The translations under genes were made by a program, and so were the position numbers. This document shows positions 15,801-48,010 of a stretch of DNA of 64,000 bases, in pieces; position 1 is the first letter of the stretch, and every line of letters starts with the position of its first letter. Source of the DNA: Chloropicon primus. Lineage: Eukaryota. Under the pieces are notes generated by a model. The model did not search any database, had not been told where the DNA came from, and saw only the letters and a program-made list of their open reading frames with translations. The stretch is from contig CP060761.1 in the NCBI GenBank assembly GCA_023205875.1, forward strand, positions 62,001 to 126,000, given 5' to 3'.

Positions 15801-18800
15801 CTCACACTGCTTGCCATTCTTTTCCGCCTCCACCTTAATGACATACTTCCTGCATTTGAAACTGTCGTGAGATTTTTCTCTGTACGAGCATTGACCATAA
15901 GGACCCCACTCTCCCTCGCAGTCCACGGGCTGGCCACAACCACCCTTGGTGCATTGCCTCAAGTTGTCCTCGTGTGGGCAAGCATAACCGTTGTTCATGG
16001 CGACCTGGCTCACACTGTACACGCGGCAACGCTCGTTCTCGTGACCTTCACCAACATAATGACAGGCATCATAATTGCCCCAAGATCCAACGCAGTCCAC
16101 TGGCTGAGCGCAACCGTCGTTGGTGCACTGCTGGAAAGAGTTGGTGTATGGGCAAGCGTGTCCATTGTGGGCCGCTGGAACTGCGATCTTGTACAACCTG
16201 CACTTCTTGTTCGTATGATCATCGTCGTGATGACCACAGAATGAATACTCATCCCATCCACCAACACAGTCCACGGGCTGAGTGCAACCAGTTTCAGTGC
16301 ACTGCTTGAAATTCTCCGTATATGCGCACTCGTAACCATTGTGAGCAGCAGAGCGTGTCACGGCATAGGTGCGGCACCTCTTGTTCTTGTGCTCAGATTC
16401 ATCATGTTGGCACAATCCGTAATCTTCCCAAGATCCAACGCAGTCCACGGGCTGAGAGCAACCCTCGGTCGTGCACTGCTTGTAGGCGTTGGCGTATGGG
16501 CAACCGAAACCGTTGTGAGCGGCATGGGTAGTGACCGCGTAGTTCCTGCACCTCCTGTTCTTGTGATCATTAGAATCATGGAAGCACGCACCATACGATC
16601 CCCAGTTACCAATGCAGTCGACAGGCTGAGAGCAACCCTCGGTGATGCAATCCACCTTGCCATTCTTGTGTGGGCATTGCTTTCCGTTCAAGTCTGCCTT
16701 GGTGGTCACAGCATATGTTCTGCAGCGCTCGTTCTTGTGGCCCGCAGCAACATGCGAGCAAGCGCCATAGATGGACCACTCTCCCTCGCAGTCCACGGGC
16801 TGGCCACAACCACCCTTGGTGCATTGCCTCAAGTTGTCCTCGTGTGGGCAAGCATAACCATTGTTCATGGCGACCTGGCTCACACTGTACACGCGGCAGC
16901 GCTCGTTCTTGTGGTCAGCCTCAACATATCCACAGGCATCATAGTTGCCCCAAGATCCAACGCAGTCCACTGGCTGAGCGCAACCGTCGTTGGTGCACTG
17001 CTGGAAAGAGTTGGTGTATGGGCAAGCGTGTCCATTGTGGGCCGCTGGAACTGCGATCTTGTACAACCTGCACTTCTTGTTCTTGTGAGCGTCATCGTCA
17101 TGCTCGCAAGAATCATACTGATCCCACGCTCCAACACAGTCCACGGGCTGGGAGCAACCAGTGTCAGTGCACTGCACGTAGCTATCCACATATGGACAAG
17201 AATATCCTCCATGCGCAGATGCCTTTGTAACAGTATAAGTCCTGCACTTCTTGTTCTTATGGTTTTCACCATCATAAAAGCATGTGCCATACTCCTCCCA
17301 AGATCCAACACAATCCACGGGCTGAGAGCAACCCTCGGTCGTGCACTGCTTGTAGGCATTGGCGTATGGGCAACCGAAACCGTTGTGAGCGGCGTTGGTG
17401 CTGACAACATAGTTCCTGCACCTCCTGTTCTTGTGGTCTGCGGTGTCGTGGTAGCACGTTCCGTAAGCGCCCCAGTCGCCAACGCAGTCGACAGGCTGAG
17501 AGCAACCCTCGGTGATGCAATCCACCTTGCCATTCTTGTGTGGGCATTGCTTTCCGTTCAAGTCTGCCTTGGTGGTCACAGCATATGTTCTGCAGCGCTC
17601 GTTCTTGTGGCCCGCAGCAACATGCGAGCAAGCGCCATAGATGGACCACTCTCCCTCGCAGTCCACGGGCTGGCCACAACCACCCTTGGTGCATTGCCTC
17701 AAGTTGTCCTCGTGTGGGCAAGCATAACCATTGTTCATGGCGACCTGGCTCACACCGTACACGCGGCAGCGCTCGTTCTCGTGGTCAGCCTCAACATATC
17801 CACAGGCATCATAGTTGCCCCAAGATCCAACGCAGTCCACTGGCTGAGCGCAACCGTCGTTGGTGCACTGCTGGAAAGAGTTGGTGTATGGGCAAGCGTG
17901 TCCATTGTGGGCCGCTGGGACAGAGACCTTGTACAACCTGCACTTCTTGTTCTTGTGAGTGTCCTTGTCATGCTCGCAAGAATCATACTGATCCCACGCT
18001 CCAACACAGTCCACGGGCTGGGAGCAACCAGCTTCAGTGCATTCCTTCTCATCGTTCTCGTGTGAACATTCAATTCCGTTGTGAGAAGACTCTAAAGAAA
18101 TTTTGTAGAGTCTGCACTTCTTGTTCTTGTGCTCCTCAGACTTGTAGTCACACATATCGTACTCTTCCCAAGCTCCGGCACAATCCACTGGCTGCGAGCA
18201 ACCAGTCAATGTGCATTGAAGAGTGTTGTCAGAATACGCACAAGCAAAACCATTGTGAGCAGCAGAGCGTGTCACGGCATAGGTGCGGCACCTCTTGTTC
18301 TTGTGCTCAGATTCATCATGTTGGCACAATCCGTAATCTTCCCAAGATCCAACGCAGTCCACGGGCTGAGAGCAACCCTCGGTCGTGCACTGCTTGTAGG
18401 CATTGGCATATGGGCAACCGAAACCGTTGTGAGCGGCGTTGGTGCTGACAACATAGTTCCTGCACCTCCTGTTCTTGTGGTCTGCGGTGTCGTGGTAGCA
18501 CGTTCCGTAAGCGCCCCAGTCGCCAACGCAGTCGACAGGCTGAGAGCAACCCTCGGTGATGCAATCCACCTTGCCATTCTTGTATGGGCATTGCTTTCCA
18601 TTCAAGTCTGCCTTGGTGGTCACAGCATATGTTCTGCAGCGCTCGTTCTTGTGGCCCGCAGCAACATGCGAGCAAGCGCCATAGATGGACCACTCTCCCT
18701 CGCAGTCCACGGGCTGGCCACAACCACCCTTGGTGCATTGCTTCAAGTTGTCCTCGTGTGGGCAAGCATAACCATTGTTCATGGCGACCTGGCTCACACC

Positions 18801-21800
18801 GTACACGCGGCAGCGCTCGTTCTTGTGGTCAGCCTCAACATATCCACAGGCATCATAGTTGCCCCAAGATCCAACGCAGTCCACTGGCTGAGCGCAACCG
18901 TCGTTGGTGCACTGCTGGAAAGAGTTGGTGTATGGGCAAGCGTGTCCATTGTGGGCCGCTGGAACTGCGATCTTGTACAACCTGCACTTCTTGTTCTTGT
19001 GAGCGTCATCGTCATGCTCGCAAGAATCATACTGATCCCACGCTCCAACACAGTCCACGGGCTGGGAGCAACCAGTGTCAGTGCACTGCACGTAGCTATC
19101 CACATATGGACAAGAATATCCTCCATGCGCAGATGCCTTTGTAACAGTATAAGTCCTGCACTTCTTGTTCTTATGGTTTTCACCATCATAAAAGCATGTG
19201 CCATACTCCTCCCAAGATCCAACACAATCCACGGGCTGAGAGCAACCCTCGGTCGTGCACTGCTTGTAGGCATTGGCATATGGGCAACCGAAACCGTTGT
19301 GAGCGGCGTTGGTGCTGACAACATAGTTCCTGCACCTCCTGTTCTTGTGGTCTGCGGTGTCGTGGTAGCACGTTCCGTAAGCGCCCCAGTCGCCAACGCA
19401 GTCGACAGGCTGAGAGCAACCCTCGGTGATGCAATCCACCTTGCCATTCTTGTGTGGGCATTGCTTTCCGTTCAAGTCTGCCTTGGTGGTCACAGCATAT
19501 GTTCTGCAGCGCTCGTTCTTGTGGCCCGCAGCAACATGCGAGCAAGCGCCATAGATGGACCACTCTCCCTCGCAGTCCACGGGCTGGCCACAACCACCCT
19601 TGGTGCATTGCCTCAAGTTGTCCTCGTGTGGGCAAGCATAACCATTGTTCATGGCGACCTGGCTCACACCGTACACGCGGCAGCGCTCGTTCTCGTGGTC
19701 AGCCTCAACATATCCACAGGCATCATAGTTGCCCCAAGATCCAACGCAGTCCACTGGCTGAGCGCAACCGTCGTTGGTGCACTGCTGGAAAGAGTTGGTG
19801 TATGGGCAAGCGTGTCCATTGTGGGCCGCTGGGACAGAGACCTTGTACAACCTGCACTTCTTGTTCTTGTGAGTGTCCTTGTCATGCTCGCAAGAATCAT
19901 ACTGATCCCACGCTCCAACACAGTCCACGGGCTGGGAGCAACCAGCTTCAGTGCATTCCTTCTCATCGTTCTCGTGTGAACATTCAATTCCGTTGTGAGA
20001 AGACTCTAAAGAAATTTTGTAGAGTCTGCACTTCTTGTTCTTGTGCTCCTCAGACTTGTAGTCACACATATCGTACTCTTCCCAAGCTCCGGCACAATCC
20101 ACTGGCTGCGAGCAACCAGTCAATGTGCATTGAAGAGTGTTGTCAGAATACGCACAAGCAAAACCATTGTGAGCAGCAGAGCGTGTCACGGCATAGGTGC
20201 GGCACCTCTTGTTCTTGTGCTCAGATTCATCATGTTGGCACAATCCGTAATCTTCCCAAGATCCAACGCAGTCCACGGGCTGAGAGCAACCCTCGGTCGT
20301 GCACTGCTTGTAGGCATTGGCATATGGGCAACCGAAACCGTTGTGAGCGGCGTTGGTGCTGACAACATAGTTCCTGCACCTCCTGTTCTTGTGGTCTGCG
20401 GTGTCGTGGTAGCACGTTCCGTAAGCGCCCCAGTCGCCAACGCAGTCGACAGGCTGAGAGCAACCCTCGGTGATGCAATCCACCTTGCCATTCTTGTATG
20501 GGCATTGCTTTCCATTCAAGTCTGCCTTGGTGGTCACAGCATATGTTCTGCAGCGCTCGTTCTTGTGGCCCGCAGCAACATGCGAGCAAGCGCCATAGAT
20601 GGACCACTCTCCCTCGCAGTCCACGGGCTGGCCACAACCACCCTTGGTGCATTGCTTCAAGTTGTCCTCGTGTGGGCAAGCATAACCATTGTTCATGGCG
20701 ACCTGGCTCACACCGTACACGCGGCAGCGCTCGTTCTTGTGGTCAGCCTCAACATATCCACAGGCATCATAGTTGCCCCAAGATCCAACGCAGTCCACTG
20801 GCTGAGCGCAACCGTCGTTGGTGCACTGCTGGAAAGAGTTGGTGTATGGGCAAGCGTGTCCATTGTGGGCCGCTGGAACTGCGATCTTGTACAACCTGCA
20901 CTTCTTGTTCTTGTGAGCGTCATCGTCATGCTCGCAAGAATCATACTGATCCCACGCTCCAACACAGTCCACGGGCTGGGAGCAACCAGTGTCAGTGCAC
21001 TGCACGTAGCTATCCACATATGGACAAGAATATCCTCCATGCGCAGATGCCTTTGTAACAGTATAAGTCCTGCACTTCTTGTTCTTATGGTTTTCACCAT
21101 CATAAAAGCATGTGCCATACTCCTCCCAAGATCCAACACAATCCACGGGCTGAGAGCAACCCTCGGTCGTGCACTGCTTGTAGGCATTGGCGTATGGGCA
21201 ACCGAAACCGTTGTGAGCGGCGTTGGTGCTGACAACATAGTTCCTGCACCTCCTGTTCTTGTGGTCTGCGGTGTCGTGGTAGCACGTTCCGTAAGCGCCC
21301 CAGTCGCCAACGCAGTCGACAGGCTGAGAGCAACCCTCGGTGATGCAATCCACCTTGCCATTCTTGTGTGGGCATTGCTTTCCGTTCAAGTCTGCCTTGG
21401 TGGTCACAGCATATGTTCTGCAGCGCTCGTTCTTGTGGCCCGCAGCAACATGCGAGCAAGCGCCATAGATGGACCACTCTCCCTCGCAGTCCACGGGCTG
21501 GCCACAACCACCCTTGGTGCATTGCCTCAAGTTGTCCTCGTGTGGGCAAGCATAACCATTGTTCATGGCGACCTGGCTCACACCGTACACGCGGCAGCGC
21601 TCGTTCTCGTGGTCAGCTTCCTCGTAATGACAGGCATCATAGTTGCCCCAAGATCCAACGCAGTCCACTGGCTGAGCGCAACCGTCGTTGGTGCACTGCT
21701 GGAAAGAGTTGGTGTATGGGCAAGCGTGTCCATTGTGGGCCGCTGGAACTGCGATCTTGTACAACCTGCACTTCTTGTTCTTGTGAGTGTCCTTGTCATG

Positions 21801-24800
21801 CTCGCAAGAATCATACTGATCCCACGCTCCAACACAGTCCACGGGCTGAATGCATCCCATCTTCGTGCACTGCACGTAGCTATCCACATATGGACAAGAA
21901 TATCCGTTGTGAGCAGCAGAAACGCTAATAGTGTAAGTCCTGCACTTCTTGTTCTTGTGCTCAGATACATCATAGGAGCAAGCGTTGTACTCTCCCCAAG
22001 CACCGGCACAGTCCACTGGCTGAGAGCAGCCAGACGTGGTGCACTGCTTGTAGGCATTGGCGTATGGGCAACCGAAACCGTTGTGAGCGGCATCTGTGCT
22101 GACAACATAGTTCCTGCACCTCCTGTTCTTGTGGTCTGCGGTGTCGTGGTAGCACGTTCCGTAAGCGCCCCAGTCGCCAACGCAGTCGACAGGCTGAGAG
22201 CAACCCTCGGTGATGCAATCCACCTTGCCATTCTTGTGTGGGCATTGCTTTCCGTTCAAGTCTGCCTTGGTGGTCACCACATAGGTTCTGCAGCGCTCGT
22301 TCTTGTGTGTGCCAGAGAGGAGAGCCCTTCTGGTGATTGGGTTATCCAGAGGTGGCAACATCTTGCCGTCGAGGTTGTCAGTCAAGTTGCCATTCACACC
22401 CTTGTTGAAGTCGATAGGCAAAACGTCTGGCAACTCTGGGGGCGCCACATCCGGAATGTCGGGCAAGACAGTCTTATCGCCAGCATAGTGACAGCTGGTG
22501 TAGACGGTCCACTCTCCCTCGCAGTCCACGGGCTGGCCACAACCACCCTTGGTGCATTGCTTCAAGTTGTCCTCGTGTGGGCAAGCATAACCATTGTTCA
22601 TGGCGACCTGGCTCACACCGTACACGCGGCAGCGCTCGTTCTCGTGGTCAGCCTCAACATATCCACAGGCATCATAGTTGCCCCAAGATCCAACGCAGTC
22701 CACTGGCTGAGCGCAACCGTCGTTGGTGCACTGCTGGAAAGAGTTGGTGTATGGGCAAGCGTGTCCATTGTGGGCCGCTGGGACGGAGACCTTGTACAAC
22801 CTGCACTTCTTGTTCTTGTGAGTGTCCTTGTCATGCTCGCAAGAATCATACTGATCCCACGCTCCAACACAGTCCACGGGCTGGGTACACAAAGATGGAG
22901 TGCACTGCACGTAGCTATCCACATATGGACAAGAATATCCGTTGTGAGCAGCAGAAACGCTAACAGTGTAAGTCCTGCACTTCTTGTTCTTGTGCTCAGA
23001 TGCATCATAGGAGCAAGCGTTGTACTCTCCCCAAGCACCGGCACAGTCCACGGGCTGAGAGCAACCAGACGTGGTGCACTGCTTGTAGGCATTGGCGTAT
23101 GGGCAACCGTAACCGTTGTGAGCGGCGTTGGTGCTGACAACATAGTTCCTGCACCTCCTGTTCTTGTGGTCTGCGGTGTCGTGGTAGCACGTTCCGTAAG
23201 CGCCCCAGTCGCCAACGCAGTCGACAGGCTGAGAGCAACCCTCGGTGATGCAATCCACCTTGCCATTCTTGTGTGGGCATTGCTTTCCGTTCAATTCTGC
23301 CTTTGTTGCAATTTCATAGGTTCTGCAACGCTGGTTTGAATGGAGTTTTCCCAGCAAGGACCTTCTTTGCATGTCGTTGAGGAACTCAACGAGCTCTTGC
23401 TCACCTGGAAGCACGTCAAGATTCTTAATAGCATCTTGCTCTTCCTTGGAAACGTTGAAATCCTGTAAAATTTCCAACAGCTCGGGCTCGTTCAGTGCCT
23501 TAGCTGGCAAAAGACCCTTTCCGCCGTAGGAACAATCACCGTAAAGAGTCCAATCGCCCTCGCAGTCCACGGGCTGGCCACATCCACCCTTGGTGCATTG
23601 AATTTGCTCATCCTTGAAAGGACAAGCAAATCCGTTGTACTTCACCTCAACCTCTACATGATAGACCCTACATCTCTGATTCGAATGACTATCAGCAACG
23701 TAGTCACAGGCATCATAGTTGCCCCAAGATCCAACGCAGTCCACTGGCTGAGCGCAACCGTCGTTGGTGCACTGCTGGAAAGAGTTGGTGTATGGGCAAG
23801 CGTGTCCATTGTGGGCCGCTGGGACGGAGACCTTGTACAACCTGCACTTCTTGTTCTTGTGAGTGTCCTTGTCATGCTCGCAAGAATCATACTGATCCCA
23901 CGCTCCAACACAGTCCACGGGCTGGGTACACAAAGATGGAGTGCACTGCACGTAGCTATCCACATATGGACAAGAATATCCGTTGTGAGCAGCAGAAACG
24001 CTAACAGTGTAAGTCCTGCACTTCTTGTTCTTGTGCTCAGATGCATCATAGGAGCAAGCGTTGTACTCTCCCCAAGCACCGGCACAGTCCACGGGCTGAG
24101 AGCAACCAGACGTGGTGCACTGCTTGTAGGCATTGGCGTATGGGCAACCGAAACCGTTGTGAGCGGCGTTGGTGCTGACAGCATAGTTCCTGCACCTCCT
24201 GTTCTTGTGGTCTGCGGTGTCGTGGTAGCACGTTCCGTAAGCGCCCCAGTCGCCAACGCAGTCGACAGGCTGAGAGCAACCCTCGGTGATGCAATCCACC
24301 TTGCCATTCTTGTGTGGGCATTGCTTTCCGTTCAAGTCTGCCTTGGTGGTCACCACATAGGTTCTGCAGCGCTCGTTCTTGTGTGTGCCAGAGAGGAGAG
24401 CCCTTCTGGTGATTGGGTTATCCAGAGGTGGCAACATCTTGCCGTCGAGGTTGTCAGTCAAGTTGCCATTCACACCCTTGTTGAAGTCGATAGGCAAAAC
24501 GTCTGGCAACTCTGGGGGCGCCACATCCGGAATGTCGGGCAAGACAGTCTTATCGCCAGCATAGTGACAGCTGGTGTAGACGGTCCACTCTCCCTCGCAG
24601 TCCACGGGCTGGCCACAACCGCTCTTGGTGCATTGCCTCAAGTTGTCCTCGTGTGGGCAAGCATAACCATTGTTCATGGCGACCTGGCTCACACTGTACA
24701 CGCGGCAGCGCTCGTTCTCGTGGTCAGCTTCCTCGTAATGACAGGCATCATAGTTGCCCCAAGATCCAACGCAGTCCACTGGCTGAGCGCAACCGTCGTT

Positions 24801-27800
24801 GGTGCACTGCTGGAAAGAGTTGGTGTATGGGCAAGCGTGTCCATTGTGGGCCGCTGGGACGGAGACCTTGTACAACCTGCACTTCTTGTTCTTGTGAGTG
24901 TCCTTGTCATGCTCGCAAGAATCATACTGATCCCACGCTCCAACACAGTCCACGGGCTGGGTACACAAAGATGGAGTGCACTGCACGTAGCTATCCACAT
25001 ATGGACAAGAATATCCGTTGTGAGCAGCAGAAACGCTAACAGTGTAAGTCCTGCACTTCTTGTTCTTGTGCTCAGATACATCATAGGAGCAAGCGTTGTA
25101 CTCTCCCCAAGCACCGGCACAGTCCACTGGCTGAGAGCAACCAGACGTGGTGCACTGCTTGTAGGCATTGGCGTATGGGCAACCGAAACCGTTGTGAGCG
25201 GCGTTGGTGCTGACAACATAGTTCCTGCACCTCCTGTTCTTGTGGTCTGCGGTGTCGTGGTAGCACGTTCCGTAAGCGCCCCAGTCGCCAACGCAGTCGA
25301 CAGGCTGAGAGCAACCCTCGGTGATGCAATCCACCTTGCCATTCTTGTGTGGGCATTGCTTTCCGTTCAAGTCTGCCTTGGTGGTCACCACATAGGTTCT
25401 GCAGCGCTCGTTCTTGTGTGTGCCAGAGAGGAGAGCCCTTCTGGTGATTGGGTTATCCAGAGGTGGCAACATCTTGCCGTCGAGGTTGTCAGTCAAGTTG
25501 CCATTCACACCCTTGTTGAAGTCGATAGGCAAAACGTCTGGCAACTCTGGGGGCGCCACATCCGGAATGTCGGGCAAGACAGTCTTATCGCCAGCATAGT
25601 GACAGCTGGTGTAGACGGTCCACTCTCCCTCGCAGTCCACGGGCTGGCCACAACCACCCTTGGTGCATTGCCTCAAGTTGTCCTCGTGTGGGCAAGCATA
25701 ACCATTGTTCATGGCGACCTGGCTCACACCGTACACGCGGCAGCGCTCGTTCTTGTGGTCAGCCTCAACATATCCACAGGCATCATAGTTGCCCCAAGAT
25801 CCAACGCAGTCCACTGGCTGAGCGCAACCGTCGTTGGTGCACTGCTGGAAAGAGTTGGTGTATGGGCAAGCGTGTCCATTGTGGGCCGCTGGGACAGAGA
25901 CCTTGTACAACCTGCACTTCTTGTTCTTGTGAGTGTCCTCATCGTGCTCGCAAGAATCATACTGATCCCACGCTCCAACACAGTCCACGGGCTGAGAGCA
26001 GTCGGTCTTTACGCATTGCTTATACAAATTAGTATATGGGCAATCGTAACCATTATGCTCTGGTTCACGGGTAACCATGTAATTGCGGCACCTCTTGTTG
26101 ACTTTCTTTACCGGATCATGCTTGCAGGTGCTGAAAGTAGACTCATCCCACATCCCGAGGCAGTCAACAGGCTGAGCGCAACCAAAGCTGGTGCATTGGA
26201 CAAAATCATTCTGATATGGACAGGCGTAACCATTGGCTTTGCTCTTCACAATCACAGCGTACGTCCGGCACTTCTTGTTCTTGTGCTCAGATGCATCATG
26301 CTTGCACGACCCGTATTCCTCCCAAGACCCAACGCAGTCCACTGGCTGAGAGCAACCCTCGGTCGTGCACTGCTTGTAGGCATTGGCGTATGGGCAACCG
26401 AAACCGTTGTGAGCGGCGTTGGTGCTGACAACATAGTTCCTGCACCTCCTGTTCTTGTGGTCTGCGGTGTCGTGGTAGCACGTTCCGTAAGCGCCCCAGT
26501 CGCCAACGCAGTCGACAGGCTGAGAGCAACCCTCGGTGATGCAATCCACCTTGCCATTCTTGTGTGGGCATTGCTTTCCGTTCAAGTCTGCCTTGGTGGT
26601 CACCACATAGGTTCTGCAGCGCTCGTTCTTGTGTGTGCCAGAGAGGAGAGCCCTTCTGGTGATTGGGTTATCCAGAGGTGGCAACATCTTGCCGTCGAGG
26701 TTGTCAGTCAAGTTGCCATTCACACCCTTGTTGAAGTCGATAGGCAAAACGTCTGGCAACTCTGGGGGCGCCACATCCGGAATGTCGGGCAAGACAGTCT
26801 TATCGCCAGCATAGTGACAGCTGGTGTAGACGGTCCACTCTCCCTCGCAGTCCACGGGCTGGCCACAACCGCTCTTGGTGCATTGCTTCAAGTTGTCCTC
26901 GTGTGGGCAAGCATAACCATTGTTCATGGCGACCTGGCTCACACCGTACACGCGGCAGCGCTCGTTCTCGTGGTCAGCTTCCTCGTAATGACAGGCATCA
27001 TAGTTGCCCCAAGATCCAACGCAGTCCACTGGCTGGGTGCACAAAGCAGTAGTGCATTGAACATATTCGTGAACATATGGGCAGGCGAATCCGTTGTTGT
27101 CAGCAGCCCTTTCAACCAAGTAAGTTCTGCACTTCTTGTTCTTGTGAGTGTCCTTATCATGCTTGCAAGAATCATACTCTGAAAATGCTCCAACACAGTC
27201 CACTGGCTGAGAGCAGCCAGACGTGGTGCACTGCTTGTAGGCATTGGCGTATGGGCAACCGAAACCGTTGTGAGCGGCGTTGGTGCTGACAACATAGTTC
27301 CTGCACCTCCTGTTCTTGTGGTCTGCGGTGTCGTGGTAGCACGTTCCGTAAGCGCCCCAGTCGCCAACGCAGTCGACAGGCTGAGAGCAACCCTCGGTGA
27401 TGCAATCCACCTTGCCATTCTTGTGTGGGCATTGCTTTCCGTTCAAGTCTGCCTTGGTGGTCACCACATAGGTTCTGCAGCGGTGATTCTTGTGTGTGCC
27501 AGAGAGGAGAGCCCTTCTGGTGATTGGGTTATCCAGAGGTGGCAACATCTTGCCGTCGAGGTTGTCAGTCAAGTTGCCATCCACACCCTTGTTGAAGTCG
27601 ATAGGCAAAACGTCTGGCAACTCTGGGGACGCCACATCCGGAATGTCGGGCAAGCCCGGCAAGACAGTCTTATCGCCAGCATAGTGACAGCTGGTGTAGA
27701 CGGTCCACTCTCCCTCGCAGTCCACGGGCTGGCCACAACCGCTCTTGGTGCATTGCCTCAAGTTGTCCTCGTGTGGGCAAGCATAACCATTGTTCATGGA

Positions 27801-30800
27801 AATCTGGCTCACACTGTACACGCGGCAGCGCTCGTTCTCGTGGTCAGCCTCAACATATCCACAGGCATCATAGTTGCCCCAAGATCCAACGCAGTCCACT
27901 GGCTGAGCGCAACCGTCGTTGGTGCACTGCTGGAAAGAGTTGGTGTATGGGCAAGCGTGTCCATTGTGGGCCGCTGGGACGGAGACCTTGTACAACCTGC
28001 ACTTCTTGTTCTTGTGAGTGTCCTTGTCATGCTCGCAAGAATCATACTGATCCCACGCTCCAACACAGTCCACGGGCTGGGCACAGCCATCTTTTGTGCA
28101 CTGTTTGTAACTGTTGGGGAAGGAGCACGTATGTCCATTGTTTTGGTTCGGAATGCTAATGGAATAGATTCTGCACCTGGTATTGGACTTTGTGGTTGAC
28201 GTGTAAGCACAGGAGTCATAGTTGCCCCAAGATCCAACACAATCGATGGGTTGCGCACACCCAGAAACAGTGCACTGCATGTAAGCATTCGAGTACGGAC
28301 AAGTGTATCCGTCGTTGGATGACTCACGCGTTACGATATAAGATCTGCACTTCTTGTTCTGATGGATCGATTTGTCATGCTTACATGTCCCATACTCTTG
28401 CCAAGCACCAAGGCAATCCACTGGCTGAGAGCAACCTGACGTGGTGCACTGCTTGTAGGCATTGGCGTATGGGCAACCGAAACCGTTGTGAGCGGCGTTG
28501 GTGCTGACAACATAGTTCCTGCACCTCCTGTTCTTGTGGTCTGCGGTGTCGTGGTAGCACGTTCCGTAAGCGCCCCAGTCGCCAACGCAGTCGACAGGCT
28601 GAGAGCAACCCTCGGTGATACATTGCGTTGCCCCATTATCAAATGAACACGACTTTCCACTCAGCTCAGCAGGTGTGGTCACCACATAGGTTCTGCAGCG
28701 CTCGTTCTTGTGTGTGCCAGAGAGGAGAGCCCTTCTGGTGATTGGGTTATCCAGAGGTGGCAACATCTTGCCGTCGAGGTTGTCAGTCAAGTTGCCATTC
28801 ACACCCTTGTTGAAGTCGATAGGCAAAACGTCTGGCAACTCTGGGGGCGCCACATCCGGAATGTCGGGCAAGACAGTCTTATCGCCAGCATAGTGACAGC
28901 TGGTGTAGACGGTCCACTCTCCCTCGCAGTCCACGGGCTGGCCACAACCACCCTTGGTGCATTGCTTCAAGTTGTCCTCGTGTGGGCAAGCATAACCATT
29001 GTTCATGGCGACCTGGCTCACACCGTACACGCGGCAGCGCTCGTTCTCGTGGTCAGCTTCCTCGTAATGACAGGCATCATAGTTGCCCCAAGATCCAACG
29101 CAGTCCACTGGCTGAGCGCAACCGTCGTTGGTGCACTGCTGGAAAGAGTTGGTGTATGGGCAAGCGTGTCCATTGTGGGCCGCTGGGACGGAGACCTTGT
29201 ACAACCTGCACTTCTTGTTCTTGTGAGTGTCCTTGTCATGCTCGCAAGAATCATACTGATCCCACGCTCCAACACAGTCCACGGGCTGAGAACAGCCATC
29301 TTTCTTGCACTGTTCAAAATTGTTGGGGAAGGAGCAGGTGTATCCATTATTGCTCGAAGGTCTTTCGACATGATACTTTCTGCACATTTTGTTGATGTGA
29401 GGGAACTCGTCATGCTGACAATGAGAATAGCCAGACCAGCCTCCAAGACAGTCCACTGGTTGAGCGCACCCACTCACTGTACATTGCTTGAAAGTGTTCT
29501 CGTAAGCGCAAGCAAAGCCATTGTTTGCAGCATTGACTGCAACCTGGTACTTTCTGCACCTCTTGTTCTTGTGGTCCTTTCCGTCGTGGTAACAGGAAGC
29601 GTAAGCTCCCCAGGATCCAACACAATCTGTGGGCTGAGCACATCCCAAAACGGTGCAGGATTCAAAGTTGTTGTTGAAGGGGCAGCCAAGACCACCATCC
29701 TTGGCGGTCACACTGACCTTGTAAACTTTGCATCTCCTGTTCTTGTGGTCACCACTGTCATGGTGGCAAGAGTCGTAGGCACCCCAAGACCCAACGCAGT
29801 CCACTGGCTGGTTGCACCCTTGCTCAGTGCACTGCTTGAAGTTGTTGCTGAAAGGACAAGCGTAACCATTGTGGTTTGCATTCACACTGATAGTGTAGAC
29901 TCTGCAGCGCTCGTTCTTGTGGCCATCGCCAAGCAAGGACCTTCTCCTGTCTTGGGTCAAGTCGAAGTCCGGGAAGTCATCCTTTTCCTCCAATTTGGCA
30001 TCTCCGTCGCACATGAACGTCGAAGGATTCTGGGCACAATACTCTGCCACCGTCAAACCAGCTTCGCATGCAAGGCACTGCGCCGTCATTGCCTTGCAGC
30101 ACATTTTAGGTGGCAAGGAAGAATCCTTTCCTTTCGACTCCACATAATTGCAAGAAGAGTAAGCACCCCAGGAGCCAACACAGTCCACAGGCTGAGAGCA
30201 ACCAGACGTGGTGCACTGCTTGAACATGTTGGTGTATGGGCATCCGTAACCGTTTTGGGCAGCGTTGGTTGCGATCTTGTAGAGCCTGCACCTCCTGTTC
30301 TTGTGGTCCTTGGAATCATGGAAGCAAGCACCATAAGCGTCCCAAGCTCCGACACAGTCCACAGGCTGTGAGCAGCCAGACGTGGTGCACTGCTTGTACA
30401 TGTTGGTGTATGGGCACCCATATCCGTTGTGAGCGGCGTTGGTGCTGTACTCGTAGTTCCTGCATCTCTTGTTCTTGTGGTCCTTTCCATCATGGTAGCA
30501 CGATCCGTAAGCACCCCAAGATCCAACGCAGTCCACTGGCTGAGAGCAGCCAGACGTGGTGCACTGCTTGTAGGCATTGGCATATGGGCAACCGAAACCG
30601 TTGTGAGCGGCGTTGGTGCTGACAACATAGTTCCTGCACCTCCTGTTCTTGTGGTCTGCGGTGTCGTGGTAGCACGTTCCGTAAGCGCCCCAGTCGCCAA
30701 CGCAGTCGACAGGCTGAGAGCAACCCTCGGTGATGCAATCCACCTTGCCATTCTTGTGTGGGCATTGCTTTCCGTTCAAGTCTGCCTTGGTGGTCACCAC

Positions 30801-33800
30801 ATAGGTTCTGCAGCGCTCGTTCTTGTGTGTGCCAGAGAGGAGAGCCCTTCTGGTGATTGGGTTATCCAGAGGTGGCAACATCTTGCCGTCGAGGTTGTCA
30901 GTCAAGTTGCCATTCACACCCTTGTTGAAGTCGATAGGCAAAACGTCTGGCAACTCTGGGGGCGCCACATCCGGAATGTCGGGCAAGACAGTCTTATCGC
31001 CAGCATAGTGACAGCTGGTGTAGACGGTCCACTCTCCCTCGCAGTCCACGGGCTGGCCACAACCGCTCTTGGTGCATTGCCTCAAGTTGTCCTCGTGTGG
31101 GCAAGCATAACCATTGTTCATGGCGACCTGGCTCACACTGTACACGCGGCAGCGCTCGTTCTCGTGGTCAGCTTCCTCGTAATGACAGGCATCATAGTTG
31201 CCCCAAGATCCAACGCAGTCCACCGGTTGGATGCACCCCGAGGTTGTGCACGACATCTTTCCAGCTGAGTAAGGACATCCGTGCCCATTTTGAGCAGCCG
31301 GAACAACAATCTTGTAGTTTTTGCACCTGATGTTGGTGTGCTCATCCTTGTCATACTTGCAAGAACCGTAACTTCCCCATTGTCCGGCACAGTTAACAGG
31401 CTGACCGCATCCTTGCACTGTACAAGATTCGTAGTTTTCGCTGAAGGGGCACTGGTAACCACTGTGATCCGATTTCCTGCTGATCTTGTAGTACCTGCAC
31501 CTCTTATTCTTGTGGTTTTTGTCGTCGTACTCGCACGTTCCCCAAAAACCCCATGCCCCAACGCAATCAACTGGTTGGACGCATCCGTTTGCAGTGCAGG
31601 ACTTGTACTTATTTGCATAAGCACACCCGTAACCGTTATACGTCGATGGGCTGGATACCTTGAATTCTTTGCATCTCTTGTTCTTGTGGTCTTTCGAATC
31701 GTAAAAGCAAGCCGCATAAGCACCAAATTCTCCTACGCAGTCCGCAGGCTGCGAGCAACCGTCCTTGGTGCAAGTCTTGTGGTTATGTTCAGTTGGACAT
31801 TGGTAACCATTAGAAGTTGCTGGCTGAACGATTTTGTACGTTTTGCACCGAACATTGACATGCTCATCTTGCTTGTGGGCGCACTGTCCATAGCTAGTCC
31901 ATGCGCCTGCGCAATCCACGGGCTGAACACAGCCTAACACAGTACAAGATTCTGCTTTGTCGGCATAAGGACAGCCTTTTCCATCGTGTGCTGGCGCAGA
32001 AGATATTTTGTAGTATCTGCAGCGCTTGTTCTTGTGACCGTCTTTTTCGTAAATGCAGTTGCCATAACTTTCCCATCCACCAACACAATCACTGGGTTGC
32101 ATGCAACCAGCATTCGTGCAGGATTCCTTGTTTTGAGGGTGAGGGCAGGCAAAACCATTGAATGCTGCCGCAGTCGTAATCTTGTACTTTTTGCACTTGG
32201 TGTTCTGATGTTTGTCTTGCACATAATTACAAGAGCCGTAAGCATCCCAAGATCCAACGCAGTCCACTGGCTGGGAGCAACCCGTCTTGGTGCAGGACAC
32301 GAACCCGTCGGCATAAGGACAGTTGTACCCGTCAAAAGAACTCTTTCTGTCGACCTTGTACGTTCTGCAGCGCTCGTTCTTATGGTCATTACCCAGCAAG
32401 GACCTCCTGTCTTGGGTCAAGTCGAAGTCCGGGAAGTCATCCTGTTCCACATCCTTCACAGCGTTCTTGCCATCAAGGACCACCAACAATGGGTTTGGAT
32501 CTGGAACCTGAAATCCAGCATAGGAGCAGGAGGTGTATGCACCCCAGGAGCCAAGGCAGTCAACAGGCTGGTTGCAGCCGGACAAGGTGCAGGATTCGTA
32601 CATGTTGGTGTATGGGCATCCGTAACCGTTGTGGGCAGCGTGGGTGCTGTACTTGTAGAGCCTGCACCTTCTGTTCTTGTGGTCCTTGGAGTCGTGCTTG
32701 CATGCGCCATATGGAGCCCAAGCACCAGCACAGTCCACTGGCTGAGAGCAACCTTGTGTTGTACAAGACTTGTAGCCAGCAGTGTGGGGACAACTGTAAC
32801 CGTTGTTTGCAGCATTGACTGCAACCTGGTACTTTCTGCACCTCTTGTTCTTGTGGTCCTTTCCGTCGTGGTAACAGGAAGCGTAAGCTCCCCAGGATCC
32901 AACACAATCTGTGGGCTGAGCACATCCCAAAACGGTGCAGGATTCAAAGTTGTTGTTGAAGGGGCAGCCAAGACCACCATCCTTGGCGGTCACACTGACC
33001 TTGTAAACTTTGCATCTCCTGTTCTTGTGGTCACCACTGTCATGGTGGCAAGAGTCGTAGGCACCCCAAGACCCAACGCAGTCCACTGGCTGGTTGCACC
33101 CTTGCTCAGTGCACTGCTTGAAGTTGTTGCTGAAAGGACAAGCGTAACCATTGTGGTTTGCATTCACACTGATAGTGTAGACTCTGCAGCGCTCGTTCTT
33201 GTGGCCATCGCCAAGCAAGGACCTTCTCCTGTCTTGGGTCAAGTCGAAGTCCGGGAAGTCATCCTTTTCCTTCTTCAAGACTTCTTCGCCATCAACGATC
33301 TTCAAAGGTTTCGCGGGCAGAACTGGCATCTGCGATCCGATGTAAGCGCAGGAAGAGTAAGCACCCCAGGAGCCAACACAGTCCACAGGCTGAGAGCAAC
33401 CAGAAGTGGTGCACTGCTTGTACATGTTGGTGAATGGGCATCCGTAACCGTTGTGAGCGGCGTTGGTGCTGTACTTGTAGAGCCTGCACCTCCTGTTCTT
33501 GTGGTCCTTGGAATCATGGAAGCAAGCCGCATAGGAACCCCAAGCACCAGCGCAGTCCACAGGCTGAGAGCAACCAGAAGTGGTGCACTGCTCAAAGTTG
33601 TTGGTGAATGGACATCCATAACCATTGCTGGCGGCGTTGGTCGTGTACTTGTACTTCCTGCACCTCCTGTTCTTGTGGTCTGAGCCATCATGGTAGCACG
33701 ATCCGTAAGCACTCCAAGCACCAGCACAGTCCAAAGGCTGAGAGCAGCCAGACTGAGTGCACTGGTTGTACATGTTGGTGTATGGACAGCCCTTACCGTT

Positions 33801-36800
33801 GTGAGCAACGTTGGTGCTGACAACATAGTTCCTACATCTCTTGTTCTTGTGATCGCTGTTGTCATGGAAGCAAGAGCCGTAAGCACCAAACCCTCCTGCG
33901 CAATTAACAGGCTGGGCACAGCCTTGGACAATGCATTGCATCGTACCTTCCTTGCTTGAGCACTGTTTGCCGTTCAAGTCTGCCTTGGTGGTGTACTTGT
34001 AGGTCCTGCAACGCTCGTTCTTGTGACCTGAAGAAACGTACTTACAGCTACCGTAGCCAGTCCACTCTCCCTCGCAGTCCACGGGCTGGCCGCAGCCACC
34101 CTTGGTGCAATGGCGAAGCTTGTTCGCGTGTGGGCAAGCATAACCATTGTTCAATGCAACCTGAGTCACAGTGTACACGCGGCAGCGCTCGTTCTCGTGG
34201 TCCTTAGAATCATAGTGGCAAGGGCCATAAGCACCCCAGGAGCCAACACAGTCCACAGGCTGAGAGCAACCAGAAGTGGTGCACTGCTCAAAGTTGTTGG
34301 TGAATGGGCATCCATAACCGTTGTGAGCGGCGCTCTTGGTGTACTTGTAGTTCCTGCACCTCCTGTTCTTGTGGTCAGACGCGGTATGCTTACAGGATCC
34401 GTAGGAACCCCAAGCACCAGCGCAGTCCACAGGCTGAGAGCAACCAGACTGAGTGCACTGAATGTAGTTGTTGGCATATGGGCAGCCATTTCCATTGTGG
34501 GCAGCGTTCGTAGTGACCTTGTAAGTTCTGCACTTCTTGTTCTTGTGCGTCGCACCATCGTGGTAGCAAGACCCGTAAGCACCCCAGGAGCCAACACAGT
34601 CCACAGGCTGGGCACAGCCAGACGTGGTGCATGACTTGTACATGTTGGTGTATGGGCACTCGTATCCGTTGTGCGCAGGATTTCTTGTCACCACATAAAG
34701 CCTGCAACGTTTGTTACTGTTTCCACTGAGCAAGGATCTTCTGTCTTCCCTCCACTCGTTAAAACCAGTAGCATCATCGTCAACCGTCTTTATGGACTCA
34801 ACACCAGATCCGCCACCGATGCTGCCGCCACCACTGTTTCCGGAGTTTCCGGTGGGTCCACCTTTGATTGCCCCTGTAGCCGAGCATGGACCATAGGAAT
34901 TCCAGGTTCCAAGACAGTCCACGGGTTGAGAGCAGCCTCCGGTAGTGCATTGGTTGTATCCTTGGCTGTATGGACACCCGCCACCTCCGTTGGCAGCATT
35001 TGTAGCAATGCTGTATTTCCTGCAGCGCTTGTTCTTGTGATCACTGTTGTCGTGACTGCAAGCACCATAAGCCCCGAAGCCTCCCGCGCAATTTACGGGC
35101 TGGGCACAGCCTTGGGTCGTGCAAAACTTGTGGTTGTGTGTGTACGGACAGCTGTATCCGTTGTGAGCAGAATTCTTGCTTATCTTGTAGAACCTGCACC
35201 GCTTCTGGCTTCCTCCTGAGAGTGAGCAGGATCCATAAGCACCCCACGATCCTACGCAGTCCACAGGCTGGGAGCAGCCACTGGTTGTGCAGGACTTGTA
35301 CATGTTGCTGTAAGGGCACCCATAGCCATTGCTGGCGGCGTTGGTTGTCACCTTGTAGTACTTGCACCTCTTGTTCTTGTGGTCTGCACCATCGTGGTAG
35401 CAAGACCCATAAGCGCCCCAAGCACCAGCGCAGTCCACAGGCTGAGAGCCACAGCCAGACGTGGTGCACTGCTTGTAGTTGTTGCTGTACGGGCATCCAT
35501 AACCGTTGTGAGCAGCGCTCTTGCTGTACTTGTAGTACCTGCACCTCTTGTTCTTATGATCCTTGGAATCATGGAAGCAGGAACCGTATGCTTGCCAATA
35601 ACCAGCGCAGTCCACAGGCTGTGAGCAGCCAGAGGTGGTACACTGCTTGTAGTTGAAGCTGAAAGCGCATCCATAGCCGTTGCTGGAAGCTTGGGTGCTG
35701 TACTTGTAGTACCTGCACCTCTCGTTCTTGTGGCTCGCACTCACATGGTAGCAAGCTCCATAGGAACCCCAATAACCTGAACAGTCAACTGGCTGAGAGC
35801 AACCAGAGGTGGTACACTGCTCGTAGTTGTTGGTGTATGGGCATCCGTAACCGTTGTGAGCTGGATTTTTCGTGTACTTGTACTTCCTGCACCGACTGTT
35901 CTTGTGCCCGGAGGAATGCTTGCAAGATCCATAAGCACCCCAAGCACCAGCGCAGTCCACAGGCTGAGAGCAACCAGACTGAGTGCACTGCTTGTAGTTG
36001 TTGCTGTATGGGCATTGAGACCCACCATGCGAGGCGCTCTTGCTGTGCTTGTAGTACCTGCACCTCTTGTTCTTGTGGTCAGAACCATCGTGGTAGCAAG
36101 CCGCATAGGAACCCCAGGAGCCAACACAGTTCACAGGCTGAGAGCACCCAGACGAAGTGCACTGCTTGTAGTTGTTGGCGTATGGACAGCCTTGCCCACC
36201 GTGGGCAGCATTCTTGCTGATCTTGTAGAACCTGCATCGAGTGTTCGACGAAATCTTTAGCAGAGACCTCCTATCTTCCCTCCAATCCCCACGATCGCTG
36301 TTGTCGGTCGCTCCACCGCATGACCCATACGAACCCCACGAACCAACGCAGTTCACGGGCTGAGAGCAACCAGAAGTGGTGCACTGCTGATAGTAGTTGC
36401 TGTATGGGCACCCAGCGCCGTTGCTGGCGGCGTTGGTGGTGATCTTGTAGGTTCTGCACCTCCTGTTCGTTGAACCGCTCTTGTGGCAACCTCCATAGGC
36501 ACCCCAACTTCCGGCACAGTTCACAGGCTGAGAGCAACCACTCGTCGTGCAGGATTGGTAGTAGTTGGAGTAAGGACACCCGCTACCTCCGTGAGCCGCG
36601 GCCCTGGTGATCTTGTACTTCCTGCACCTCTTGTTCTGAGAGCCAGACTTGTGGCAACCTCCATAGCTGCCCCAACTACCGGCACAGTTCACAGGCTGAG
36701 TACAACCGCTGGTGGTACAGGACTGCTGGCCATTGCTGGCTCCACAGCCGGAACCACCGTTGGAAGGGTGGGTGGTGTACCTGTAGGTCTTGCACTTTCT

Positions 36801-41776: not shown

Positions 41777-42047
41777 GGAGGAGGGCGACCACCAGAGGGA
41801 GAGGGAGGGGACGAGGGGACGAGAACGCGTCCACGACAACGCAACGAAACGACACGACGCGCAGGAAGGGAACCCCTCCGTCGAAAGCGCTTTTCTCTTC
41901 GTGAAGGGAAACGGAACGGAACGGAGAGGAGGGAGGGAGAGAGGGAAAGGCGGCGGGGACGAAGAGAGAAGCGACGTGAGCAGAAGGCGCTCGGTGGTTG
42001 ACCGCTGCGGAGCCGAACAACAACAACAACAACTGAAAAAATAAAAA

Positions 42048-45000
42048 ATGAAAAAGAACGTCGAGTGGTTGTGCGTTTGGCTGGCCGTGGTGGTGGTGGT
42101 GGCCGCCGCCACGCCTGTGTACGGCCAGAGGTGGGGGAGGCCCCACAGCTACGGAAGGTCCAAGGCGAGCACCGTTGGGAGCAGCGGTATTGGCATCGCG
42201 AGCGAAACAAGCAAGGCGGAAGTCGACGGCAGCGGCACCTTCATGGCCTCCGCTGAGGCCGACGCCGGAGACACCAAAGCAAAGGTCATGGCGATGACCA
42301 CCGATGGCGCTGCTCAAGGCAGCAGCACCGCCTCCATGAGTGGTGCGGGTGAGATGGTCATGACCGAGGTTTCTGGTGACGGAATGTTGACGGGCGAAGC
42401 AAAAGGTTCGTCGTCCACCGCAAGTGCTACGGCTGACGGCGGGGACGACAATGACCTCCGCGCTTCGGCTGTCGGCTCGGGGAACACCGTCTCTACTGTT
42501 GTTGAGGATGCTGACATGAATCACGTTGAAGCCGTGGCTCATGGTGACGGCAATACAGTGACTGCAACTGCTGAGTTTGGTGCTGAAATGAATCGTGTTG
42601 GTGCCGCGGCTCGCGGTGATCGCAATGAAGTGGAGGCTTTTGCTGGGTTTACTGCTGACATGAATCGTGTTGGTGCCGTGGCTCGTGGTGATGACAACAC
42701 AGTGATGGCTTCAGCTTCTGAGACTGCTACCATGAATCGTGTTGGTGCCGCGGCTCGCGGTGAGAACAACACAGTGATTGCTGGTGCTGTTGAGGATGCG
42801 GAGGACAATCGTGTTGGTGCCGTGGCTCGTGGTGATCGCAATGAAGTGGAGGCTTCTGCTGAGGCTGGTGTTGGCATGAATCGTGTTGGTGCCGTGGCTC
42901 GCGGTGATGACAATATGGTGATGGCTGTTGCTGAGGGTGCTGACATGAATCGTGTTGATGCCGTCGCTCGTGGTGATGACAATATGGTGATGGCTGTTGC
43001 TGAATTTGCTGACATGAATCGTGTTGATGCCGTCGCTCGTGGTGATGACAATATGGTGATGGCTGTTGCTGAATTTGCTGACATGAATCGTGTTGGTGCC
43101 GCGGCTCGTGGTGACAACAATACAGTGGAGGCTTTTGCTGAGTTTGCTGACATGAATCGTGTTGATGCCGTGGCTCGTGGTGATGACAACACAGTGATTG
43201 CTGAGGCTGTTGAGGATGCGGACGACAATCGTGTTGGTGCCGTGGCTCGTGGTGAGAACAACACAGTGATTGCTGGTGCTGAAGGTGCTGACATGAATCG
43301 TGTTGGTGCCGTGGCTCGTGGTGATGACAACACAGTGAATGCTGGTGCTTTTGAGGATGCGGACGACAATCGTGTTGATGCCGTGGCTCGTGGTGATGAC
43401 AACACAGTGATTGCTGAGGCTTCTGAGGGTGCGGACGACAATCGTGTTGGTGCCGCGGCTCGTGGTGATGACAACACAGTGATTGCTGAGGCTTCTGCTG
43501 AATTTGCTGACATGAATCGTGTTGGTGCCGTGGCTCGTGGTGATGACAACACAGTGACTGCAACTGCTGAATTTGCTGACATGAATCGTGTTGGTGCCGT
43601 GGCTCGTGGTGATGACAACACAGTGAATGCTGGTGCTCAATTTGCTGACATGAATCGTGTTGATGCCGTCGCTCGTGGTGATGACAATATGGTGATGGCT
43701 GTTGCTGAATTTGCTGACATGAATCGTGTTGGTGCCGCGGCTCGTGGTGACAACAATACAGTGGAGGCTTTTGCTGAGTTTGCTGACATGAATCGTGTTG
43801 ATGCCGTGGCTCGTGGTGATGACAACACAGTGATTGCTGAGGCTGTTGAGGATGCGGACGACAATCGTGTTGGTGCCGTGGCTCGTGGTGAGAACAACAC
43901 AGTGATTGCTGGTGCTGAAGGTGCTGACATGAATCGTGTTGGTGCCGTGGCTCGTGGTGATGACAACACAGTGAATGCTGGTGCTTTTGAGGATGCGGAC
44001 GACAATCGTGTTGGTGCCGTGGCTCGTGGTGAGAACAACACAGTGATTGCTGGTGCTGAAGGTGAAGCTGACATGAATCGTGTTGGTGCCGTGGCTCGTG
44101 GTGATGGCAATGAAGTGGAGGCTTTTGCTGAGTCTGGTGCTGACATGAATCGTGTTGATGCCGTGGCTCGTGGTGAGGGCAACACAGTGGAGGCTGAAGC
44201 TCTATGGGATGCTACCATGAATGATGTTGATGCCGTGGCTCGTGGTGATGACAATATGGTGATGGCTGTTGCTGAATTTGCTGACATGAATCGTGTTGAT
44301 GCCGTCGCTCGTGGTGATGACAATATGGTGATGGCTGTTGCTGAATTTGCTGACATGAATCGTGTTGATGCCGTCGCTCGTGGTGATGACAATATGGTGA
44401 TGGCTGTTGCTGAATTTGCTGACATGAATCGTGTTGATGCCGTCGCTCGTGGTGATGACAATATGGTGATGGCTGTTGCTGAAGGTGCTGACATGAATCG
44501 TGTTGGTGCCGCGGCTCGTGGCGATCGCAATGAAGTGGAGGCTTTTGCTGAGTCTGGTGCTGAAATGAATCGTGTTGATGCCGTGGCTCGTGGTGATGAC
44601 AACACAGTGATTGCTGAGGCTTTTGAGGGTGCGGACGACAATCGTGTTGGTGCCGTGGCTCGTGGTGATGACAATACAGTGACTGCAACTGCTGAGTTTC
44701 GTGCTAACATGAATCGTGTTGGTGCCGTGGCTCGTGGTGATGACAACACAGTGAATGCTGGTGCTCAATCTGCTGACATGAATCGCGTTGATGCCGTGGC
44801 TCGTGGTGAGAACAACACAGTTGTTGCTGGTGCTGTTGTAGATTCCTTTGGCAATCGTGTTGGTGCCGCGGCTCGCGGTGATGACAATATGGTGATGGCT
44901 TTGGCTATTGAGGGTGCGGACGACAATCGTGTTGGTGCCGTGGCTCGCGGTGATGACAATATGGTGATGGCTTTGGCTGTTGACGATGCGGACGACAATC

Positions 45001-47738: not shown

Positions 47739-48010
47739 GGAGGAGGGCGACCACCAGAGGGAGAGGGAGGGGACGAGGGGACGAGAACGCGTCCACGACA
47801 ACGCAACGAAACGACACGACGCGCAGGAAGGGAACCCCTCCGTCGAAAGCGCTTTTCTCTTCGTGAAGGGAAACGGAACGGAACGGAGAGGAGGGAGGGA
47901 GGGAAAGGCGGCGAGGACGAAGAAAAGAAGCGACGTGAGCAGAAGGCGCTCGGTGGTTGACCGCTGCGGAGCCGAACAACAACAACAACAACTGGGAAAA
48001 AAAAGAAAAA

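Follow-up and report, generated by a model that had tools for sequence, protein, structure and literature searches.

How is one to interpret a giant protein of a green alga that repeats what appears to be the same protease recognition motif again and again, inside its disulfide-bonded repeats and never in the linkers between them? The question is raised by a 64,000-nucleotide stretch of Chloropicon primus DNA (assembly GCA_023205875.1, contig CP060761.1, positions 62,001 to 126,000 of the forward strand; hereinafter, the window), in which a single stop-free open reading frame on the minus strand (12849-37673) encodes 8,274 amino acids (~908 kDa), largely taken up by an array of 123 six-cysteine spondin-like thrombospondin (TSP) repeats, mostly of 58 residues (14016-37514). 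The answer that we favor, with a probability of about 0.6, is that the Golgi site-1 protease (S1P, or SBT6.1) would cut at these motifs, the resulting pieces would stay stapled to each other by disulfides, and the inserts that end in the motif would be freed as arms.

An earlier note on this DNA had described about 13 inserts in one and the same loop, after the second cysteine of the repeat, each ending in RR(S/A)LL, and all 13 are found where it put them. Every motif is on the minus strand, in frame, and closes a Cys2-Cys3 loop insert 7-8 residues ahead of Cys3. RRSLL is found in repeat 7 (36135-36356, motif at 36258-36272, with the site present in the orthologue), in repeat 15 with its Gly-rich insert (34605-34922, motif at 34728-34742), and in repeats 23 (33087-33386, motif at 33213-33227), 27 (32268-32564, motif at 32394-32408), 39 (29805-30188, motif at 29931-29945) and 71, which has an acidic insert of its own (23226-23570, motif at 23352-23366). 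RRALL is found in repeat 35, after a Pro-rich, acidic insert (30711-31049, motif at 30837-30851), and in repeats 45 (28596-28934, motif at 28722-28736), 51 (27378-27725, motif at 27504-27518), 55 (26517-26855, motif at 26643-26657), 61 (25302-25640, motif at 25428-25442), 66 (24267-24605, motif at 24393-24407) and 76, the last one with a site (22191-22529, motif at 22317-22331). Among the 121 repeats that the parsing covered, R-x-L-[LQ] is present in all 13 long Cys2-Cys3 loops and in none of the 108 short ones. Across the ectodomain, there are 16 such motifs, whereas 1,000 shuffles yielded 0.51 on average and never more than 5, and for the 8 distinct insert loops, RR-x-LL arises in 0.04-0.35% of each loop's own shuffles. 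The three sites beyond the internal 13 are N-terminal, and the earlier note had caught two of these: RRNLQ (37257-37271), C-terminal to the Tyr-rich insert that separates Cys3 from Cys4 in repeat 1, and RRNLL (37224-37238), immediately N-terminal to Cys4; cuts at both would excise an 11-residue spacer. The one it missed, GRQLQ (37509-37523), comprises the last residues of an acidic propeptide and adjoins Cys1 of repeat 1, with RQLQ, RKLQ or RNLL in its place in orthologues.

So are these 13 independent occurrences? The insert bodies fall into five classes, namely, repeat 7, repeat 15, repeats 23, 27 and 39, the seven RRALL-type repeats, and repeat 71, with alignment z values of 8-27 inside a class and at most 3.9 across classes in the window. 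The motif is thus kept, as claimed, but the claim that the bodies are unrelated goes too far: the seven RRALL-type inserts, listed by the same note as copies, are near-identical duplicates. Judging by these alignments, there are about five independent inserts rather than 13, the seven near-identical ones having arisen by tandem duplication. The codons vary between the motif classes, so that it is the protein and not the DNA that is conserved. The DNA of the RRALL motifs can also be read as RRALL on the plus strand (at 22318, 24394, 25429, 26644, 27505, 28723 and 30838), where stops lie close by in the same frames, a codon coincidence. The repeat 39 insert additionally harbors a six-cysteine mini-module, CCxAxxAxCxAC... 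(29988-30131, minus strand), that is kept in the matching inserts of two homologues (P0124 and P0012) and has no match in Pfam or the ESM Atlas. Eight of the nine N-glycosylation sequons fall within inserts, a clustering that is absent from the inserts of the orthologue and accordingly was dropped as a conserved feature.

In the homologue survey (122 listed among 150 matches), the closest named relatives among the matches listed are Chloropicon roscoffensis and C. primus. The C. roscoffensis orthologue P0124 (5,961 residues), which is identical to the window protein at 995 of 1,370 positions over residues 431-1800, carries 13 sites, 3 N-terminal and 10 internal, the latter at matching repeats (7, 15, 23, 26, 34, 38, 44 and on), even as its RRALL-type inserts have diverged to a z of just 1.5-4.7 relative to the window class. 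In the other orthologue record, P0005, the insert bodies are 34-62% identical to those in the window, compared to 72-81% for the repeat cores, and each of the 4 cases retains the motif. P0005 lacks the repeat 35 insert, but the insert is present in the longer C. roscoffensis record, so P0005 probably stems from a collapsed assembly, and the idea that this insert is a lineage-specific gain had to be rejected. In paralogues at 34-36% identity, the motif turns up in three different loops (Cys1-Cys2, Cys2-Cys3 and Cys3-Cys4). No motif at all was found in the inter-repeat linkers of the window protein and 14 homologues. In these 14 homologues, RR-x-L-[LQ] occurs 25 times with 0.09 expected; in 94 other matches, it occurs 6 times with 1.4 expected, and none of these occurrences closes an insert in a TSP-repeat loop. 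In three other TSP-containing proteins (P0097, P0100 and P0110), RRRLQ lies in a loop that connects two predicted strands; the domain in question is not a TSP repeat and, by eye, appears SEA-like. This hints that RRL sites within domains could be more widespread among protist surface proteins.

That the repeats adopt the TSP fold is indicated, first, by Pfam: residues 1-1024 match TSP1_spondin (PF19028) with 53 bits, above the curated cut-off of 41, and two shorter pieces of the protein score 28-29 bits, under the cut-off. In addition, the AlphaFold model of a plain repeat (mean predicted local distance difference test score, pLDDT, of 89.9) shows a predicted three-strand fold like that of the thrombospondin type 1 repeat (TSR); the 13 highest-ranking structures that it matches all contain either TSP1-type repeats or a relative of these, the pleiotrophin domain, the top one with a Z of 4.6 and a root-mean-square deviation of 3.1 over 52 of 58 aligned residues. 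The ESM Atlas yielded weak TSP leads, a search of PDB sequences with the repeat profile yielded a single weak, irrelevant match, and the Foldseek matches of an insert-bearing repeat model all have E >2. In the model of repeat 35, which stands for one of the five insert classes, residues 42-69 of the model, which fall in the insert, have a pLDDT below 50, compared to 87-90 for the core strands, so the insert loop is predicted to be disordered and exposed; all six core cysteines are kept in 13 of the 13 insert-bearing repeats. To this extent, the proposal that the sites are inside disulfide-bonded domains is supported.

Which cysteines would staple such a domain? Canonical group-2 TSRs have disulfides 1-4, 2-5 and 3-6. 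Among 302 distinct repeats of canonical length, Cys3 and Cys5 are both present in 294, both absent in 6, and lost singly in 2, one of which is a register artefact. Because Cys3 and Cys5 are lost together, the sequences point to a Cys3-Cys5 bond and hence to a variant disulfide pattern. Given this bond and the TSR topology, Cys1 and Cys2 likely pair with Cys4 and Cys6, in which case both these bonds would span the cut.

The next question is which protease, if any, reads the motif. In the excerpts of the cited papers on which we draw here and below, the S1P consensus is R-X-aliphatic-Z, where X is not Pro or Cys, Z is not Val, Pro, Cys or Glu, and Leu at Z is best (PMC8310232). All 16 window sites fit, and the motif is conserved across species while the insert bodies drift, so the assignment of the motif to S1P by the earlier note is borne out to this extent. 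Hydropathy, with an N-terminal and a single C-terminal hydrophobic stretch, puts the motifs on the predicted lumenal side. A gene for the enzyme appears to be available: C. primus A3770_04p31680 is annotated as K08653/MBTPS1, with a match to Chlamydomonas Cre14.g628800 at E 3e-164 (PMC6731263 Supplementary Data 2), and the Chlamydomonas protein is described as resembling S1P (PMC6313938); Micromonas and Ostreococcus MBTPS1 are listed in a supplement (PMC6713707).

Of the alternatives, the one that survives best, although we consider it unlikely, is that the sites are cut by a different enzyme: the algal RXL protease that has been proposed to process diatom silaffins, a subtilase other than S1P, or a convertase that acts after the dibasic RR. 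Diatom silaffins lose RRIL or RRNL to a protease that the excerpts leave unnamed (PMC4557024, PMC5525289), further subtilisin-like genes exist in C. primus, and RR is present at 13 of the 13 internal sites. However, the residue preceding R-x-L-[LQ] in 43 distinct sites is Arg in 32 and Gly in 7, and at orthologous sites, the first Arg is swapped for Gly or Lys (GRSLL, GRNLL, KRSLL) while L-L/Q stays. With Gly or Lys tolerated at P5, the basic pair is dispensable, as it is for S1P and unlike the case of furin-type enzymes, so cleavage that depends on a dibasic pair is rejected. Furthermore, plant SBT1-5 are reported from streptophytes only, whereas the S1P clade is found throughout Archaeplastida (PMC6713707). 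Two other classes of signals were considered and discarded. An acidic dileucine sorting signal or a D-box would require the cytosol, and the RRSLQ and TRRALL variants break the dileucine. The apicomplexan PEXEL/TEXEL motifs read RxLxE/Q/D or a strict RRL near the N-terminus; the internal sites here read RRS or RRA, then G, S or K.

If S1P is the enzyme, the following chain of events can be envisaged. S1P would take off the acidic propeptide at GRQLQ, cut twice within repeat 1, and then cut after LL in the 13 flexible Cys2-Cys3 loops. In each nicked repeat, Cys1 and Cys2, N-terminal to the cut, would be bonded to Cys4 and Cys6, C-terminal to it, such that 15 pieces (computed at 10 kDa, thirteen of 30-57 kDa, and 347 kDa) form one membrane-held filament, the propeptide and the 11-residue spacer alone being released. 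Over the outer two-thirds of the rod, each closed loop would thereby open into an arm of 20-73 residues that has a free end and in most cases is acidic. As for the purpose, maturation of a wall-associated filament is the most likely one, with the arms becoming available to be displayed or to bind wall material; this is the part of the scenario of which we are least certain. Since two disulfides are likely to span each nick, the chain would stay whole and membrane-bound, and combined with the lack of any site in the linkers, this argues for one filament with freed arms and against the suggestion that the protein is a polyprotein from which TSP-chain subunits are released.

The same geometry brings up the second alternative, rather improbable in our assessment, under which the nicks are installed in advance so that the chain can be broken there later: the two disulfides would be opened by a reductase or by thiol exchange, and the outer filament would be shed in pieces of 30-57 kDa, for example, at wall release. 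Indeed, reduction would break the chain nowhere but in the nicked repeats, the sites are fairly regularly spaced, one every 4-8 repeats (273-519 residues), and they are limited to the outer part of the ectodomain, ending at 64% of it in the window protein and at 71% in P0124. A speculative elaboration, to which we give equally little credence, is a surface filament of about half a micron with pre-cut, disulfide-held fuses every 4-8 repeats, where a redox switch shortens or sheds the outer coat in successive pieces at division or attack and the freed loops are exchangeable display arms, one of them with its own six-cysteine module. However, the linkers and the membrane-proximal part, that is, the last 2,840 ectodomain residues, have no site; all six cysteines are retained in every insert repeat; no reductant or partner was identified; and the shedding model has no need of a conserved freed arm. 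The claim of redox-controlled shedding thus is without direct support, and in a paralogue, too, a segment of 67 repeats is free of sites.

Perhaps, then, the motif is not cut at all but serves in the lumen as an epitope for binding or sorting, or as a docking site by which passage through the Golgi is paced? Conservation alone cannot separate cutting from binding, and one nick leaves the insert in place. We nevertheless regard this as very unlikely because the same motif ends the propeptide directly before Cys1, a classic processing position, and small residues prevail after the motif. Finally, the notion that introns or artefacts of assembly account for the inserts, with the motif as a by-product of duplication, notwithstanding the near-identity of seven of the 13 inserts and the fact that the full reading frame is not one sequence in the protein collection, can be put aside as extremely improbable given that every insert is in frame and stop-free, none starts with GT (the repeat 23 loop lacks any GT[AG]), and homologous inserts are found on a C. 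roscoffensis contig of 1.79 Mb as well as in other, independent assemblies.

Several observations weigh against cleavage by S1P with retention of the stapled pieces. The hypothesis is built on sequence and models. The structural scores are modest (Z <5; Foldseek probability up to 0.98, with E >0.2); the putative disulfide pairing is deduced from co-loss and TSP topology, with no contacts seen in a model; the presence of S1P is inferred from the genus, via the C. primus annotation, and other subtilases exist in C. primus (PMC6731263 Supplementary Data 2). Among homologues, 17 of the 33 long-insert repeats lack the motif; by eye, these are 13 of 16 Cys1-Cys2 inserts, 3 of 16 Cys2-Cys3 inserts and 1 parsing artefact. 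A site present in P0007 and P0008 is lost at the orthologous position in P0009 and P0010, and paralogue P0004 is the one whose 67-repeat segment has zero sites. The fast divergence of the arm sequences argues against specific binding. Taken together, the comparisons indicate that the sites are under selection where present but that not every loop or array needs one.

The remainder of the gene fits the prediction of a type I membrane protein, one that has a ~290-residue tail. The protein has just two hydrophobic stretches: the predicted signal peptide (37575-37673, minus strand as for all features of this gene; residues 1 to ~33, with the end placed by eye) and, at about residues 7960-7985, the predicted transmembrane helix (13719-13790), both identified by hydropathy. 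The predicted cytoplasmic tail (12849-13718) contains NPMF, NPLF and NPLY and, near its end, two segments that we take to be WH2-like, Pfam giving no WH2 match; these three NPx[FY] motifs and the WH2-like segments are kept in orthologues and paralogues, which suggests a link to actin or endocytosis. The tail has no match in PDB and no meaningful match in Pfam. At the opposite end, the Cys3-Cys4 interval of repeat 1 (37270-37460) holds YVAP repeats and a Tyr/Ser/Asn-rich stretch, followed by two sites, an arrangement kept in orthologues, and this stretch resembles cross-linkable wall-protein sequence. The 47 membrane-proximal repeats (14016-22190), which have neither insert nor site, are net acidic. 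Mean core charge falls along the array, from +2.9 in repeats 2-33 to -0.9 in repeats 34-76 and -2.0 in repeats 77-123, so that the mostly acidic arms would sit on its basic-to-neutral outer part. Near-exact blocks of 5, 6 and 11 repeats (periods of 870, 1,044 and 1,914 bp) are present in the proximal array (14000-22000), and repeat copy number therefore is probably variable; 83 repeats were parsed in the orthologue vs 123 here.

Elsewhere in the window, two tandem paralogues on the plus strand (42045-46892 and 47939-49660) have identical N-termini with a signal-like start and 23-24-residue repeats, acidic and then basic at the end, that by eye resemble a beta-solenoid; Pfam gives no match for the longer paralogue, and neither of the two has an RxLL site. 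On the minus strand, 205-6663 encodes a 2,153-residue protein with a signal-like start and matches to LamG, filamin, TIG, DUF2341 and Kelch.

How does this system compare to those already known? Judging by its sequence, the protein likely works like an S1P substrate. Known substrates, namely, pro-RALF23 (RRXL), CLEL6/GLV1 (RRLR, RRAL), the S1P prodomain and viral glycoprotein precursors (RRLL), share R-X-aliphatic-Z within a secretory precursor and predicted Golgi cleavage, but in the excerpts, they have one or a few sites that split off a pro-region or two subunits (PMC8310232, PMC7162652, PMC11371470), whereas here there are 16, 15 of which are within disulfide-bonded repeats. The diatom RXL precursors, including silaffin Sil1p (RRIL or RRNL ending repeats R1-R7), silacidins, frustulins, cingulins and Silicanin-1 (PMC4557024, PMC5525289), likewise are algal surface or wall proteins with repeated RRxL after acidic or low-complexity stretches. 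In silaffins, however, the motif ends each repeat and peptides are freed, whereas in this green alga, RXL also recurs along a secreted precursor but lies inside folded repeats that keep their disulfides, not at repeat ends. The spondin-like TSP1 arrays (PF19028; the thrombospondin-1 TSR, PDB 1LSL; SCO-spondin-like proteins) share the Pfam match and the three-strand fold; the pattern of six cysteines here is divergent, with Cys3 located between two basic residues of strand B and likely paired with Cys5. Chains that are nicked by furin at one or two dibasic sites each and remain disulfide-linked, such as the integrin alpha heavy and light chains, the insulin receptor, and complement C3 and C4, share the convertase-type cut in a flexible loop; what differs here is an S1P-type design repeated along an array.

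In the open-access literature, we found no paper on Chloropicon thrombospondin proteins, no relevant report of S1P sites in TSP repeats, and, among the papers listed in connection with algal RRLL, no report of such a design. Plant RRxL substrates and diatom silaffin repeats provide precedents; the new part is many sites inside disulfide-bonded domains. S1P is best known for single activating cuts. If the present hypothesis is correct, this protease would pattern an entire surface filament by placing more than 12 nicks inside folded domains, a design intermediate between an uncut rod and a polyprotein. The system would also allow one to test cleanly which protease recognizes the algal RXL/RRxL motif, an enzyme left unnamed in the excerpts of the diatom papers (PMC4557024, PMC5525289). 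Furthermore, with the Chloropicon wall described mainly by microscopy (excerpt of PMC5656628), a family of candidate structural proteins would thereby be named for the surface of a picoalga that is abundant in the open ocean.

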